In this document: positions 1 to 11,051 of the stretch, piece after piece
Position numbering within the stretch: the first letter of the stretch is position 1
Layout: each line of letters starts with the position of its first letter
Virus genome (UHGV): UHGV-1546770
Reading direction: 5' to 3' (one strand)
Length of the DNA stretch: 31,581 nucleotides
DNA from: a virus
The notes under the pieces: generated by a model
Databases searched by the model: none
Told to the model about the DNA's origin: nothing
The model's input: the letters and a program-made list of their open reading frames with translations, nothing else
Made by a program: the position numbers and the translations under genes

Positions 1-1
1 G

Positions 2-86
2 TGGGACAGGGGGTCGGATTCGAACCGACGTGAGCAAAGCTGGCGGCTTACAAAACCGCTCCAATCGACCACTATGGGACTCCTGC
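2..86 (-). tRNA. tRNA-like gene, type-II-like body (13-nt variable arm), anticodon loop UUUGUAA (UGU), encoded CCA
   Basis: Hand fold of minus strand: acceptor GCAGGAG/CCCCTGT (6 of 7 pairs), D-arm CCA-TAGTGGTCGAT-TGG, anticodon stem GCGGT/GCCGC, T-arm GTCGG-TTCGAAT-CCGAC, discriminator C plus CCA. Confidence 0.5.
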
Positions 87-164
87 AGATCTCTGTGTCT
101 TTCCACAGCGCCAGCTATGCTTTGTTTGGTGGCGGCGCGCGACGTGCATAGCATCCACATTTTT

Positions 165-235
165 CTAACGCAACTTGAATCGAACAAGTATCTCCCTCTG
201 ATAGTGAGGGCGCTTTCCCATTAAGCTATACGATA
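165..235 (-). tRNA. degenerate tRNA-like gene, anticodon loop ACUAUCA (C at position 33)
   Basis: Hand fold: acceptor TATCGTA/TGCGTTA (one T-T mismatch), D-arm GCTT-AATGGGA-AAGC, anticodon stem CCCTC/GAGGG, perfect T-arm ACTTG-TTCGATT-CAAGT; no CCA. Confidence 0.35.
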
Positions 236-292
236 ATATAATTTTAAACACTGGCAGGGCGGCGTATCCTGCATCTCAGATTCCCTATAAGA

Positions 293-350
293 GGAGCGTC
301 GGGAGCCTTTCCGACCTCAGTGTTTCATTTATGTTTCAACAACCGCTGAT
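293..350 (-). pseudogene. tRNA pseudogene fragment related to the 2-86 tRNA-like gene
   Basis: Minus strand AGCGGTTGTTGAAA...GTCGG-AAAGGCTC-CCGAC resembles the anticodon and T-arm of the 2-86 gene (same GTCGG/CCGAC stem) but the T-loop is degenerate and no acceptor pairing is found. Confidence 0.25.
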
Positions 351-481
351 GATTAGTAGCGATAAGCATTTATGCTTTGCTTAAAGCAGTTTCTGAGGAA
401 TTATATGAAAAAAATGCATCAAGTCGCTAATTTATATGCCGCCACACGACAGGTCGGCAATCTTTGTTGTTGACTTTAATT

Positions 482-572
482 TGGTCCCCCCGGAATGGAT
501 CGAACATTCATATACCTTGTGAGGGCCTCTCCGTTATAAGCAGAGGGCTATAACCAATTTAGCTACGAGGGG
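482..572 (-). tRNA. tRNA-like gene with ~19-nt variable region, anticodon loop CUUAUAA (UAU), encoded CCA
   Basis: Hand fold: acceptor CCCCTCG/CGGGGGG (7 pairs incl. one G-U), D-arm GCTA-AATTGGTTA-TAGC, anticodon stem CTCTG/CGGAG, T-arm GAATG-TTCGATC-CATTC, discriminator A plus CCA. Confidence 0.5.
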
Positions 573-760
573 AGATATTAATTTGCCGTCTTTCCGAGCT
601 GTCACCGTTTCTGCCGATTTGTAGGGTTCGTTCGAACAGTTTAAGCAACTTATCCCTTGGTAATGATAGCAAGCGAGGCCGCGTATGACCCCTAACAGAC
701 TTAAAAGTTACTGGTTCTATCTTCACTCAAATCTGACATTGTACGCTACTCACTATCATT

Positions 761-843
761 TGGTGGGCAGGGTGGGTGTCGAGCCCACTACCCCGAAGGA
801 ACGGATTTACAGTCCGCCGCGTTTGCCGATTCGCTACCTGCCC
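761..843 (-). tRNA. tRNA-Tyr (anticodon GTA), type II, encoded CCA
   Basis: Hand fold: perfect 7-bp acceptor GGGCAGG/CCTGCCC, D-arm GCG-AATCGGCAAA-CGC, anticodon loop CUGUAAA, 12-nt variable arm with CC-TTCG-GG hairpin, T-arm GTGGG-CTCGACA-CCCAC (C at position 54). Confidence 0.7.
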
Positions 844-854
844 ATATTTATTTG

Positions 855-930
855 GTTGCTGAAGCTCTGGAATTGAACCAGATTAAAACGACTTATGAGG
901 CCGCTTGAGATACCTACCTCCCACCAGCAA
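855..930 (-). tRNA. tRNA-like gene with Met/Ile2-type anticodon loop CUCAUAA (CAT); acceptor stem imperfect
   Basis: Canonical core GCGGC-CUCAUAA-GTCGT, 5-nt variable loop, T-arm TCTGG-TTCAATT-CCAGA; no clean 7-bp acceptor pairing found by hand, so possibly a pseudogene or a misfold. Confidence 0.4.
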
Positions 931-983
931 TATGTTGCAACTTTAGTATTTTATATAGGTCGTACAGTTGCCACAAAGACCTG

Positions 984-1060
984 TGGTACGCCACCTCGAA
1001 TTCGAATCGAGACTTGATGCATTTTGAGTGCATTTCCTCTGCCAATTGGGATAGTGGCGC
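984..1060 (-). tRNA. tRNA with anticodon CAA (Leu by anticodon) but type-I body with 5-nt variable loop, encoded CCA
   Basis: Hand fold: acceptor GCGCCAC/GTGGCGT (7 pairs incl. G-U), anticodon arm ATGCA-CTCAAAA-TGCAT, T-arm CTCGA-TTCGAAT-TCGAG, discriminator A plus CCA. Confidence 0.6.
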
Positions 1061-1071
1061 ATATTAAAGAA

Positions 1072-1145
1072 TGAAAACGATAAGACTTGAACCAATGTCT
1101 TCCTCGTTCGTAGCGAGGCACTCTATACAACTGAGTGACGCTTGC
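1072..1145 (-). tRNA. tRNA-Arg (anticodon ACG), partly degenerate
   Basis: Anticodon arm CCTCG-CTACGAA-CGAGG matches the canonical Arg-ACG loop; D-arm ACTC-AGTTGTATA-GAGT; T-arm ATTGG-TTCAAGT-CTTAT (one mismatch); acceptor GCAAGCG/CGTTTTC (one mismatch); no CCA. Confidence 0.5.
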
Positions 1146-1203
1146 ATATTTGACTCTTAGGTCAGTCAGCCACACATTACTTAACGCATTCCATTTGTTC
1201 GCG

Positions 1204-1290
1204 TGGTGCAGGTGAAGGGCCACGATCCCTCAATCCCATCTGGGCGACAGATTTTAAGTCTGTTCTGTATTCCAATTCCAGCACACCTGC
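1204..1290 (-). tRNA. tRNA-Leu (anticodon TAA), type II, encoded CCA
   Basis: Hand fold: perfect acceptor GCAGGTG/CACCTGC, D-arm CTG-GAATTGGAATA-CAG, anticodon arm ACAGA-CTTAAAA-TCTGT, 15-nt variable arm, T-arm GAGGG-ATCGTGG-CCCTT, discriminator A plus CCA. Confidence 0.65.
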
Positions 1291-1771
1291 ATATCAATGG
1301 GCAGTTTTCAGAGATACCCAGCTCTGCCAGTACTCAAAATTCTATCTATCTCACACATTAACCTATTTTCACATAAGGATGGCTACCATTCAGCCTTGTG
1401 GATAACCTATGGTCATTGAACTTGAAACCAAACCATTGCTCAAGGATTTTGTAAAACTTTGTGGGCACACAATTTTAATTAACAATTATCTAAAAGCCCT
1501 CTTTACAACTTTAAGACTTAAACTTTGACGAAAAAATAATCTTTGAGCATTGATCTCTGAACATTGATATTTAAACTTTAATCTTTACAGTTGAAAAATA
1601 TATGTACATCTTAATTTTAAGTCAATCCATATATTAACTTTCTTACTATATTATTAGCATTAGTAAAAATATTGTTGAAGACCAATTTTTTTATTATTTC
1701 ACATCAATGTATCGGTCAAAACCATCGAAGCAAGTCCGTTCTAGGTTTTCGAATGGCAGCAAGTTAGCTGC

Positions 1772-2428
1772 TTAATACTCGATATCAAGCACAGTTAGTG
1801 CGTTACTAACCGAAAGCGCCGCATCAACTTCAGTAATGAAACTAGAAATCTCATTGTCAAGCTGTTCAATGGCATCCTTGACACCAATAGGATCAATGAT
1901 GTCATAAGTGTTGTCCTTGATGTACTGAGCACGAAGATTCTTCATCGCTTCCGAATCAACAGCCATCTTAGAATCCTTCGGCTGTGCCTGAATGACACTA
2001 AGAACATAATTCTCTGCTCTCTTCTCAAGAGGATCACCACTGTTCTTATCAAGCTCATTCTTTGCTACAGCATACTGAGATTCAAGACACTTCTTAAATG
2101 TGTTCTTGAACTCCATCCCATGGTTCTTCATCTCAATTGCGGTAGCAACTGTGTATTCGTTGTCACCAACCTTAACCTTCGTTACTGCATTAGATGCAAC
2201 AACCGCCTTCTTGATTGCATTACGTCTTGCAATCAGATCAGACACCTTCTGGAAATCTGACTTCATGCTGTTCTTAAACTCATTAATGGTCACTCCATGA
2301 ATCTTCTCATTAGAATGCTTATTCGCAACTACAAACGTACCAGAACAAATCGCATTATTGATACGTGAATCAATAACCTTAAGTTCTGCAAGAGCCTTGT
2401 GGACTGTCATCTGTTCCTTCGTTGCCAT
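1772..2428 (-). CDS. hypothetical protein (218 aa)
   Basis: Intact minus-strand ORF; AAAAGGAG RBS before the ATG; last gene before the tRNA array; no recognisable motif. Confidence 0.6.
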   Translation of the reverse strand: MATKEQMTVHKALAELKVIDSRINNAICSGTFVVANKHSNEKIHGVTINEFKNSMKSDFQKVSDLIARRNAIKKAVVASNAVTKVKVGDNEYTVATAIEMKNHGMEFKNTFKKCLESQYAVAKNELDKNSGDPLEKRAENYVLSVIQAQPKDSKMAVDSEAMKNLRAQYIKDNTYDIIDPIGVKDAIEQLDNEISSFITEVDAALSVSNALTVLDIEY

Positions 2429-10040: not shown

Positions 10041-11051
10041 TCAGTCTCCTTTACCTTTTAAACTATTTATATATCTATCTAACTCTTCTTGTGTGATATA
10101 TCCTTTTTCAATTGCATCTTCCGCATACAACCAATGCAATGCCTCGCCTGTTTGTGGATGTTTATACGTATAATTTTGTTTACCTCTACAGCACTTTGTA
10201 ATAGAGCTTGGATCACATCCATATAAATTTTGTACTTCTTTTGCTCCCCAAAAAATTTGATTTAATTCTATACAATATATTCTTCTACATTTCCACCAAT
10301 TACTACCTTTACGAGAATCACTCATCTTTTTCTTTGCTTCTTCTGTGTGATGTTTCCCATACATTGGATGATTGCTTGGATTTATAAATCTTTCTTTTGC
10401 TTTTTCTGATAGATTTAATTTTTGTTCATCTGACAATTTTTTACCTAAACTGGGATGTTGTTTTCCTATCCATATATGTTTGCCTTTAGTTGTTGGATTT
10501 GCCCAATATAATTTATGTTTTTCATACCATTGTTTATATGTTTCTTCATCCATGCGTTCTTTTGGAGAAACTTTAAACTGTGGATTATTCTCGCCTACTA
10601 ATCCTGCTCTTCCATACATTGGATGATTATTTGGATCTGAAAGTCTTTCTTTTGCAGCTTTTGATATCTTTTTTCTTGTTTCTTTACTTGGAGTCCATCC
10701 TTGCGTTGTTCCTCCACCATAAACAAGATTATACCAATTGTTAGATTCAACAGCATTAAAGAAAACACTATAATTATATTCCATTTCATTTAATTCTTCT
10801 GCAGAATAAGCAATATCAATTACATTTCTTACAAAATTTTCTTTTCCATATTTGTCAATTGCTTGTTTAAATGCTGCACCACTACCAAGATATTCTTGCC
10901 AATTTCCATAGAATTTTCTTTGGCCTAAATATCTTTTGCCATCAATCAAATTCGTTGTGATATAAATAAATCCATATGGATCTTTTACTTCCGTATATGT
11001 TGTATCTTGTAGCCCATCAACGGAAGAATTCATTTCTTTTAATTCTTCCAT
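10041..11051 (-). CDS. GIY-YIG homing endonuclease with NUMOD3 repeats and NUMOD1-like HTH
   Basis: N-terminal YGFIYITTNLIDGKRYLGQ (GIY-YIG), repeated NHPMYG...K..S motifs, C-terminal ELNQIFWGAKEVQNLYGCDPSSITKCCRGK helix-turn-helix. Confidence 0.7.
   Translation of the reverse strand: MEELKEMNSSVDGLQDTTYTEVKDPYGFIYITTNLIDGKRYLGQRKFYGNWQEYLGSGAAFKQAIDKYGKENFVRNVIDIAYSAEELNEMEYNYSVFFNAVESNNWYNLVYGGGTTQGWTPSKETRKKISKAAKERLSDPNNHPMYGRAGLVGENNPQFKVSPKERMDEETYKQWYEKHKLYWANPTTKGKHIWIGKQHPSLGKKLSDEQKLNLSEKAKERFINPSNHPMYGKHHTEEAKKKMSDSRKGSNWWKCRRIYCIELNQIFWGAKEVQNLYGCDPSSITKCCRGKQNYTYKHPQTGEALHWLYAEDAIEKGYITQEELDRYINSLKGKGD

Follow-up and report, generated by a model that had tools for sequence, protein, structure and literature searches.

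Introduction

Why bacteriophages carry tRNA genes is a question some 50 years old, and whether such genes top up codons poorly served by the host or escape host nucleases is now contested. The tRNA clusters of T4, T5 and the LP65-like Lactobacillus phages are same-strand arrays of large phages with homing-endonuclease genes interspersed, and the array described here, at positions 2-1290 on the minus strand of UHGV virus genome UHGV-1546770 (the window, i.e. the whole stretch of 31,581 nucleotides that was analysed), resembles them in these respects; it also includes tRNAs, Tyr and others, that are known as targets of host nucleases. Phage tRNAs have been proposed to evolve to escape host tRNA nucleases (PMC10264068, PMC11555353, PMC13056530). 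The published signature of such escape is mutation of the anticodon loop, whereas the loops of the window array are canonical and its variation lies in the tRNA body.

Two described systems join a long variable arm to the anticodon UAU. By definition an allo-tRNA has an acceptor/T branch of 8/4 or 9/3 together with a long D stem closed by a tetraloop (PMC5389517), and allo-tRNA(UAU) was inactive as a Ser suppressor, was left with its function unknown and, it was suggested, may not be used in translation (Mukai et al., 2017; PMC5389517). The nematode nev-tRNA-Ile(UAU) has a variable arm (V-arm) and an anticodon matching a rare codon, and is charged only with Leu (PMC3333845). For the converse case, a tRNA-Leu that lacks its arm, the Escherichia coli leucyl-tRNA synthetase (LeuRS) is informative: it needs A73, A15-U48, G18G19 and A20a, the long arm and the anticodon of tRNA-Leu are dispensable, and armless variants are still active (PMC9976931).

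The UHGV-1546770 array contains an armed tRNA(UAU), an armed tRNA-Thr(UGU) and an armless tRNA-Leu(CAA). As far as can be judged from sequence, such mismatches between body and anticodon characterise whole families of phage tRNAs, which are conserved and supported by covariation.

Results

The tRNA array and its gene calls

ARAGORN and the Rfam covariance models were run on the window. ARAGORN called seven minus-strand tRNAs, which it labelled Thr-UGU (2-86), Ile-UAU (164-236), Tyr-AUA (482-572), Tyr-GUA (761-843), Met-CAU (858-932), Leu-CAA (984-1060) and Leu-UAA (1204-1290). With Rfam sensitive filters applied to positions 1-1800, the RF00005 model (gathering score 29 bits) returned seven loci at or above that score with E-values of 8e-10 to 8.5e-7, namely 764-843 (52.0 bits), 485-572 (50.1), 987-1060 (48.1), 165-235 (44.1), 1072-1145 (43.7), 1207-1290 (42.0) and 5-86 (41.0); under the default filters only four RF00005 loci pass. 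The union of both programs is eight tRNA or tRNA-like genes within window positions 2-1290, all on the minus strand, which bears out an earlier note that had folded at least eight such genes here by hand and had allowed that their oddities might be folding errors; the programs do call tRNAs, and the unusual features are not artefacts of that kind. That the array belongs to a phage is supported by the gene content of the window and by the same array in 36 related IMG/VR contigs of ~150 kb (loci carry L numbers below), which were found because the open reading frame (ORF) adjoining the array (1772-2428) matches 36 IMG/VR loci at 50-99% amino-acid identity, mostly on contigs of 130-170 kb.

CCA is encoded in five of the genes (2-86, 482-572, 761-843, 984-1060 and 1204-1290). 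The variable arm has at least 10 nt in 1204-1290, 761-843, 482-572 (19 nt) and 2-86 (13 nt), and only 5 nt in 984-1060. Neither 482-572 (UAU) nor 2-86 (UGU) has the Leu, Ser or Tyr anticodon that goes with a type II body; the long arms that the earlier note had seen on these two tRNAs were recovered (anticodon loop UUUGUAA with 13 nt, CUUAUAA with 19 nt), as was the short variable loop of the CAA tRNA (5 nt, CAAGU). Anticodon loops are canonical in seven of the eight genes, the sole deviant being 165-235, so the suggestion that anticodon-loop variants serve to escape nucleases is not the main story of this array.

An armed tRNA(UAU) with an invariant variable arm

The tRNA(UAU) at 482-572 (minus strand) is Ile-like, with the anticodon loop CUUAUAA, a 4-bp D stem, a 19-nt variable region A-G-GCCCUCACAAGGUAUAU, A73 and an encoded CCA. 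The Tyr-AUA label that ARAGORN gave it was rejected, because it comes from a misregister of a 6-bp stem; the Rfam register and the alignment of its family (A1) both read UAU. This alignment was gathered with a 14-mer of the arm, filtered through ARAGORN, and with a stricter pattern in metagenomes, and holds 14 distinct tRNAs from at least eight phage lineages, which were told apart by their shared neighbouring ORFs. In A1 97.9% of the cells are paired, 19 of 24 pairs show compensatory changes, and none of 500 shuffles reached the covariation score. The 17-nt arm GCCCUCACAAGGUAUAU is invariant, as are A14, A15, C26 and U48, and the loop CUUAUAA is found in 13 of the 14 members. The D stem consists of four pairs, the fourth of which covaries (AU in seven members, CG in six), and closes a D loop of 9-10 nt; a covarying 4-bp D stem argues for a class-I body with an insertion at position 47, and not for descent from tRNA-Leu.

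The bacterial Ile identity set comprises A73, C4-G69, U12-A23, C29-G41, A35, U36, A37 and A38 (PMC9976931, Table 1). A1 has A73 and U12-A23 in 14/14 members, C4-G69 in 13/14 and C29-G41 in 8/14, the window copy among these eight, and A35, U36, A37 and A38 are also present. In genomes 95-99% identical to one another the same slot holds a canonical 76-nt tRNA-Ile(UAU) instead, and the AUA codons of the shared genes are unchanged, which argues that the armed allele has the same meaning.

The strict pattern for this arm had no exact match in 100,044 representative genomes. No target complementary to the invariant arm occurs in the window, and within the DNA fetched no ORF family co-occurring with the armed tRNA is common to the phage lineages. 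In one 178 kb phage (L047:10691-10779) the same invariant arm stands on a gene whose anticodon loop reads UUCUAAA (CUA) and whose anticodon stem pairs poorly, adjoining a 75-nt tRNA(CUA) at L047:9758; amber suppression could take place in this phage.

A second arm design is found on UAU tRNAs of 95-96 nt in distant relatives of the window (L024, L029, L030, L033, L035 and L036). This sister family is much the larger of the two: the pattern of its arm occurs in at least 120 viral contigs and at least 88 distinct sequences, all listed with a UAU anticodon. For 28 representatives (A3) RNAalifold gives a five-arm cloverleaf in which 21 of 24 pairs, those of the arm stem included, show compensatory changes; they share the invariant arm loop CAGAUUA, an anticodon loop YUUAUAC and A73 as discriminator. 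A G1.U72 wobble is seen in 13 of the 28. Among the 100,044 genomes the CAGAUUA-arm pattern picked out only 27 stretches, mostly in large tRNA arrays of Acidobacteria metagenome-assembled genomes, and a few of these genomic members (Ruegeria, some Acidobacteria) have an allo-tRNA-like D arm. The cultured Lactobacillus phage LpeD (H35/H36, 138782-138860; the contig of L196) also carries a CAGAUUA-arm tRNA(UAU), which is missing from its GenBank/RefSeq annotation. Two unrelated invariant arm designs on UAU tRNAs indicate a function in the decoding of AUA or in the handling of this tRNA.

With allo-tRNA(UAU) these phage tRNAs share a long variable arm and the UAU anticodon (PMC5389517), and to that extent the phenomena overlap. 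However, in the family of the window the 7/5 branch covaries, the D arm is an ordinary one of 4 bp, the arm sequence is another and the genes lie in phage arrays, and with seven covarying acceptor pairs and five covarying T pairs the UAU families fall outside the definition of allo-tRNAs; membership was therefore rejected. The nematode tRNAs are eukaryotic, derived from tRNA-Leu and charged with Leu (PMC3333845), in contrast to the class-I body and Ile-type determinants of the phage family, whose 4-bp D stem is not of Leu type and which nevertheless has A73, A15-U48 and G18G19. No description of a long-arm tRNA-Ile(UAU) in phages was found in the literature that we searched, a limited search that is not proof of absence.

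A tRNA-Leu family without the long arm

The tRNA-Leu(CAA) at 984-1060 (minus strand) is of class-I size, with A15/U48, A73, an encoded CCA and the 5-nt variable loop given above, and its D arm is of Leu type (a 3-bp stem with the loop CAAUUGGCAGA). A pattern scan of IMG/VR gave 18 distinct sequences of this family from many unrelated contigs (A2); anticodon loop, T loop and the variable loop CAAGU, U48 included, were set by the pattern, which left the D arm free. Here 98.9% of the cells are paired, compensatory changes occur in 19 of 20 pairs and the covariation score was reached by 0/500 shuffles, and sliding the partner columns as a control drops the pairing to 33-42%. Outside the search pattern U8, A14, A15, G18, G19 and A73 are invariant, and the D arm is a 3-bp stem with the loop CAA-YN-GGCAGA, an arrangement also seen in the canonical type II Leu tRNAs that these arrays carry (GAAUUGGUAGA). 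Nine of the 18 sequences have a G1.U72 wobble.

As far as sequence elements go, 984-1060 has the identity set of E. coli tRNA-Leu, and an armless tRNA-Leu in phages agrees with the independence of E. coli LeuRS from the long arm (PMC9976931). Homologues of 72-77 nt are annotated as tRNA-Leu in more than 100 cultured phage genomes, with Lactobacillus, Corynebacterium, Serratia, Rhodococcus, Escherichia and Salmonella hosts; the tRNA-Leu genes of Lactobacillus phages Bacchae and LP65 and of Corynebacterium phage StAB, for instance, are also class-I-sized and 75-81% identical to a member of the family. A census of body size in 120 viral loci that had been fetched for a reason unrelated to Leu found 46 of 103 distinct Leu tRNAs to be class-I-sized, compared to 1/74 for Ser and 0/31 for Tyr. 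On these alignments and counts the absence of the arm in the CAA tRNA can be taken as real, and as a common, little-remarked trait of phage Leu tRNAs; our literature search, again limited and no proof, returned no description of armless tRNA-Leu in phages or of the loss of the arm.

The second Leu gene of the array, tRNA-Leu(UAA) at 1204-1290 (minus strand), is of type II, bearing a long variable arm and an encoded CCA, and is identical in 11 relatives. Its unusual T loop, AUCGUGG, noted earlier and reproduced here, amounts to an A54/U58 swap, i.e. a swapped reverse-Hoogsteen pair, and this form would abolish the m5U54 site. Across 235 distinct array tRNAs positions 54 and 58 covary, with T/A in 79%, A/T in 10.6% and a few G/G and C/C.

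An armed tRNA-Thr(UGU) family

The tRNA-Thr(UGU) at 2-86 (minus strand) has the anticodon loop UUUGUAA, a 3-bp D stem, a 13-nt variable arm and an encoded CCA. Diverged members of its family occur in five other phage contigs, and an alignment of seven armed Thr-UGU sequences (A4) shows compensatory changes in 12 of 21 pairs. UGU and C2-G71 are present in 7/7 and G1-C72 in 6/7, the window copy being the exception; positions 13 and 22 are never paired (7/7), which is type-II-like, and the arm stem covaries by eye (AGC/GCU, GGC/GCC, GGGG/CCCC). The identity of E. coli tRNA-Thr resides in G1-C72, C2-G71, G35 and U36. With G1-C72, C2-G71 and U73 the armed family matches canonical phage Thr tRNAs, whereas Ser tRNAs have G2-C71 and G73. 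In the 120-loci census long arms on Thr tRNAs were confined to UGU genes (5/39, vs. 0/29 for GGU, CGU and AGU genes).

The window copy itself has G1.U72, A6.C67 and C73, while in relatives 47 near-identical copies pair perfectly along the acceptor (GCAGGAG/CUCCUGC) and go on with U73-CCA. Between window positions 5-10 (minus strand) and L121:3700-3712 substitutions cluster solely in the 3' acceptor strand and discriminator of this gene, within 1.8 kb of surrounding sequence that is 99.9-100% identical. The stretch reads CTCCTGCT in relatives, CCCCTGTC in the window, with three differences from the relatives within 11 nt, and CCCCCGCC in L121, where every T is now C and the acceptor has the mismatches A3.C70 and A6.C67. 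Elsewhere in IMG/VR (L293, L300 and L234) long arms were seen on many class-I isoacceptors of 84-89 nt (Glu-UUC, Lys-UUU, Met-CAU, Ile-GAU, Gln-UUG, Gly-UCC, Pro-UGG and Asn-GUU).

Replacement of tRNA bodies within anticodon slots

The slots of the array were compared in 24 genomes, the window and 23 IMG/VR loci in which the flanking protein shares 97-99% identity with that of the window. The anticodons mostly keep their order, and the occupants of a slot are often unrelated, with two to five bodies per slot. The Leu-CAA slot holds three families (two of 85 nt and type II, one of 77 nt and armless) with 55-61% identity between them, the Leu-UAA slot three families (60-62%), the UAU slot five, the Arg-ACG slot two (66%) and the Gly-UCC slot two, and at the level of segments BLAST shows array blocks to be inserted, deleted and swapped. 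Endonuclease genes occur both within such arrays and outside them: an HNH_3/NUMOD4 gene stands between Arg-ACG and Leu-CAA in L003 (11421-12191) and in several similar relatives, and a GIY-YIG/NUMOD3 gene is found among the replication genes of the window (10041-11051, minus strand). The homing endonuclease SegB of the T4 tRNA cluster (PMC2330249) is a precedent.

In five relatives (L009, L013, L014, L016 and L034) the homologue of window 547-692 comprises the spacer and, of the armed UAU gene, no more than the initial ~26 nt, joined straight to the region of the tRNA-like gene described below (164-236). This is a deletion scar, from which the rest of the tRNA and the neighbouring skipping-rope RNA have gone.

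Other genes of the array

Three of the window genes are damaged alleles, judging by comparison with relatives that lack the damage (Arg, CAU and Thr), so that the earlier suggestion of partly decayed copies holds for these and is not supported for the other genes; the mismatches noted earlier in the Arg and CAU genes were likewise recovered. The tRNA-Arg(ACG) at 1072-1145 (minus strand; 43.7 bits) is probably a decaying copy, with changes at conserved positions (A9C, G19U and C71U, the last giving C2.U71), two T-stem pairs weakened and CCA not encoded; in the window ARAGORN passes over it, and does call an intact homologue in 12 relatives at 90-94% identity. The tRNA(CAU), of uncertain identity (Met, fMet or Ile2) and placed at 853-932 (minus strand), was called by ARAGORN only (858-932), Rfam giving a tRNA-Sec-like match of 25.6 bits against a cut-off of 47. 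In its family G8/U14 replace U8/A14. In the window copy the 3' acceptor strand is longer by an insertion of 2 nt and U7.U66 is mismatched, while the gene in L007, L010 and L017 has a perfect 7-bp acceptor with U1-A72 followed by A73-CCA; beyond the clade of the window the family has one distant member (L188).

The tRNA-Tyr(GUA) at 761-843 (minus strand) is a type II tRNA with an encoded CCA and the T loop CUCGACA (C54), which agrees with the earlier fold. It is identical in L001, L002, L017 and L020 and one base off in L007 and L010, and in L004, L008, L011, L014, L015 and L034 the same slot holds a diverged 85-nt variant (~84% identity to the window copy in one long alignment, and at least 80% by single-linkage clustering).

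The remaining tRNA-like gene, at 164-236 (minus strand), has a UAU anticodon in the loop ACUAUCA, which reproduces the C33 seen earlier and adds C37 to it (the C33/C37 gene), as well as G73, a U3.U70 mismatch and no encoded CCA. It is present in 23 relatives, identical in 17 of them, and its anticodon stem has changed once in a compensatory way (CCAUC/GAUGG in L005); beyond this clade nothing better than chance matches was found. We regard it as a conserved tRNA-shaped RNA that is probably non-decoding.

Between two tRNA genes, at 246-325 (minus strand), lies a skipping-rope RNA (RF02924) that the reader of the earlier note had missed. It matches model positions 1-80 of 80 with 77.9 bits against a cut-off of 36.7 (E = 9e-19), and the C33/C37 gene begins 10 nt downstream of it. 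Eleven relatives have this RNA, and others keep the flanking tRNA without it. The skipping-rope motif has been described with a 3' Rho-independent terminator and particular protein genes nearby (Weinberg et al., 2017; PMC5737381), but the full-length, high-scoring window copy sits inside a tRNA operon without a terminator: no Rho-independent terminator-like site was found in window positions 1-2000, and no DUF3800-type gene among 31 of the ~32 minus-strand window ORFs of at least 100 aa scanned against Pfam. In an 85%-identity relative (L022:12257-12328) the position of the C33 gene after the skipping-rope RNA is taken by another non-canonical gene, a 72-nt class-I-sized tRNA with the loop UUGAGUG (anticodon GAG, U37). 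In the spacers of the array, Rfam at E-values up to 10 gave only noise and small ORFs look like chance; the fold of spacer 573-760 is no better than that of shuffled sequence (z = -0.14) and that of spacer 326-481 is weakly better (z = -2.07).

A possible sigma-70-type promoter (TTGACT-17-TATATT; 1597-1625, minus strand) lies ~300 nt upstream of the first tRNA. It is a weak candidate from a consensus scan (10/12 matches), and such sites are no commoner here than in shuffled sequence.

Phage context and codon usage

Window 1-1800 recurs at 99.9-100% identity in metagenome contigs L121 and L127, and in L121 the array extends beyond window position 1, where a 92-nt tRNA-like gene and one for Ser-GCU are added. 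The former (L121:3959-4050, plus strand) is also present in 22 relatives, e.g. L002:12625-12716, with 92-95 nt; its acceptor stem, D arm and T arm are normal, and ~34 nt replace the anticodon arm, a stretch that could be an expanded anticodon arm or a mini-intron. ARAGORN labels it Phe-GAA or '?(Ile|Tyr) aata'. In the most distant relatives a phage-encoded tmRNA (tag ANNNTEIVMVHPALIAALEGAAA) adjoins the tRNA array (L035:7957-8366, L036:4418-4827).

Outside the array the window holds a phage replication module with a DnaB-like helicase, a Sak4-like ATPase, an SSB-like protein and a tyrosine recombinase, together with the GIY-YIG/NUMOD endonuclease, a DUF932 gene, a methyltransferase and an M28-like peptidase. 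Window 1800-26000 has no near DNA match among cultured phages, and window 1-1800 shows only generic tRNA similarity to them. The closest cultured match of the helicase is Geobacillus virus E3 (31.5% amino-acid identity), which suggests that the host of this ~150 kb phage belongs to the Bacillota.

Codons were counted in the window genes, i.e. early genes. AUA makes up 8% of Ile codons and 0.5% of all codons, yet the array has two UAU genes; ACA is the commonest Thr codon (43%) and UAU accounts for 83% of Tyr codons, while the window part of the array offers no gene for CUU (41% of Leu codons) or AGA (58% of Arg codons). The tRNA set does not obviously match the codon usage of the window. At 16 AUA sites, a small sample, the alternatives in aligned sequences are Leu codons (9 distinct site-and-codon combinations), Val-GUA (6), Ile (4) and Met (2), a hydrophobic mixture that favours no single reading. 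Suppressor tRNAs and recoding of stop codons were rejected for the window, in which there is no CUA, UCA or UUA anticodon; reading through TAG barely alters the ORFs, and the gains from TGA or TAA look non-specific.

Discussion

The reading that we favour, though with reserve, is that window 2-1290 belongs to a functional, cassette-like phage tRNA operon whose tRNA bodies are under diversifying selection, probably evading host factors that target tRNAs. Its processing, charging and selective driver we infer as follows. The array would be the upstream part of a polycistronic tRNA operon of a ~150 kb phage, probably of Bacillota, whose primary transcript is presumably cut by the RNase P and RNase Z of the host, freeing the embedded skipping-rope RNA. 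The operon would supply the phage with its own decoders for UUA, UUG, AUA, ACA, UAY, CGN and AUG. On comparative grounds the three genes of unexpected body type count as functional, and their identity elements favour the amino acid of the anticodon. The armless CAA tRNA, which keeps the elements of bacterial LeuRS recognition, would be charged with Leu; the armed UAU tRNA, which keeps the bacterial Ile determinants of acceptor and core, would lead to AUA being read as Ile; and the armed Thr-UGU family, with G1-C72, C2-G71 and U73, would be charged with Thr. The occupants of the anticodon slots are swapped among near-identical phages, presumably with the aid of homing endonucleases, and selection would favour bodies poorly recognised by host factors that target or handle tRNAs, with decoding held constant, through gain or loss of the variable arm, the T-loop 54/58 swap and the 8/14 swap. 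That anticodons are kept while bodies are replaced, and that arms are repeatedly gained and lost, fits selection on recognition of tRNAs outside the ribosome.

Several points weigh against this reading. The published escape model is one of anticodon-loop mutations (PMC10264068, PMC11555353), which are mostly absent in this array. The replacement of slot occupants could be neutral cassette shuffling driven by endonucleases and not by selection. The UAU family encodes U34, not the G34 or lysidine-34 that the E. coli isoleucyl-tRNA synthetase (IleRS) prefers, and with A73, A15-U48 and G18G19 it also fits much of the LeuRS set, so that charging with Leu is possible. Lastly, an invariant 17-nt arm implies a sequence-specific partner, which this reading does not name.

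The strongest alternative, to which we would give a fair hearing but think doubtful, is plain codon supplementation, with the unusual bodies as neutral variants tolerated by the synthetases. The array anticodons do read A/U-rich codons (UUA, UUG, AUA, ACA and UAY), ACA and UAU predominate among the Thr and Tyr codons of the window, and LeuRS needs no long arm; however, AUA, at 0.5% of codons, has two genes and is served in nearly all of the related arrays, and the commonest Leu and Arg codons, CUU and AGA, are without a gene in this part of the array. Supplementation as such is neither shown nor excluded by these counts. Neutral drift of the bodies leaves unexplained why one 17-nt arm is invariant across at least eight lineages though every stem covaries, why UAU tRNAs have two independent arm designs and why whole bodies are replaced with the anticodon kept.

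It is unlikely that the C33/C37 gene, and possibly the armed tRNAs, have roles outside translation, as decoys for nucleases or modification enzymes or as punctuation for RNase P and RNase Z. For the C33/C37 gene such a role would accord with its conservation despite a disabled anticodon loop and with its place 10 nt downstream of a skipping-rope RNA that is itself without the described terminator, although 13 of the 23 relatives with the gene are without the skipping-rope RNA. For armed tRNAs one may recall the suggestion of Mukai et al. on allo-tRNA(UAU) cited above (PMC5389517), but in the armed UAU and Thr tRNAs the anticodon loops are canonical, CCA is encoded and the identity elements match.

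Recoding or deliberate mistranslation, in which LeuRS or the seryl-tRNA synthetase (SerRS) charges the armed UAU and UGU tRNAs so that AUA or ACA is read as Leu or Ser, is improbable. The nematode V-arm tRNA(UAU) is a precedent for charging only with Leu (PMC3333845), and the LeuRS determinants of the UAU family, its U34 (a poor IleRS determinant) and the same arm on a CUA-like loop in L047 all point in that direction; the covarying 4-bp D stem, on the other hand, marks a class-I body and not one of Leu or Ser type, and the Ile determinants C4-G69 and U12-A23 are conserved. The Thr family keeps C2-G71 and U73 without the Ser-type G2-C71 and G73, and a 3-bp arm is short for SerRS. The AUA sites of the window align with Leu codons more than with Ile codons (9 vs. 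4), but this test has 16 sites, no other single alternative is as common as Val (GUA), which is what one expects of Ile, and near-identical genomes with a canonical short tRNA-Ile(UAU) have the same AUA codons.

That the non-canonical genes are mostly junk, decaying pseudo-tRNAs of a fast-evolving array, is very improbable, for although the window Arg, CAU and Thr copies carry disruptive changes absent in relatives, a truncated 5' remnant of the long-arm UAU gene exists in relatives and the C33/C37 gene is without U33, a purine at 37 and A73, the families behind the three body-type oddities have 12-19 compensatory pairs, more than 93% of cells paired and no shuffle reaching their score, and the C33 gene is identical in 17 of 23 carriers and has a compensatory stem change.

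Returning to diversifying selection on the bodies, a further and tentative idea, to which we give little credence as yet, is that the extra arms of Ile(UAU), and by extension of Thr(UGU), are sequence-specific handles for a dedicated partner. The two UAU arm designs differ in kind: one is the invariant GCCCUCACAAGGUAUAU, the other a covarying stem with an invariant loop, CAGAUUA, within which stands GAU, the anticodon triplet of Ile. Candidates for the partner are a synthetase domain that reads a 'pseudo-anticodon', a U34-modifying enzyme that keeps UAU off AUG, or a host nuclease or immunity protein that the arm blocks. If so, and taken with the armless Leu tRNAs, switching of body plans would be a general phage strategy that makes tRNAs orthogonal to host control; in the extreme version the amino acid received at AUA would change.

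Already on record are phage tRNA arrays, allo-tRNA(UAU), the nev-tRNAs of nematodes and, in the form of database annotations, armless tRNA-Leu genes of phages. Four things appear undescribed in the literature searched, namely the tRNA(UAU) family that joins a class-I body to an invariant 17-nt arm, the armed family of Thr-UGU, how large the CAGAUUA-loop family is in phages, and the pattern of slot replacement. Near-identical phages that keep an anticodon set and swap unrelated bodies offer a pattern that is directly testable. The boundary separating class I from class II, elsewhere in bacteria almost fixed, is crossed by them again and again, with Leu losing the arm and Ile-UAU and Thr-UGU gaining it. 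The partner of the arm and the amino acid charged would bear on the rules of tRNA identity, on the distinction between AUA and AUG and on the arms race between phage and host over translation, and such tRNAs might serve as naturally orthogonal scaffolds.

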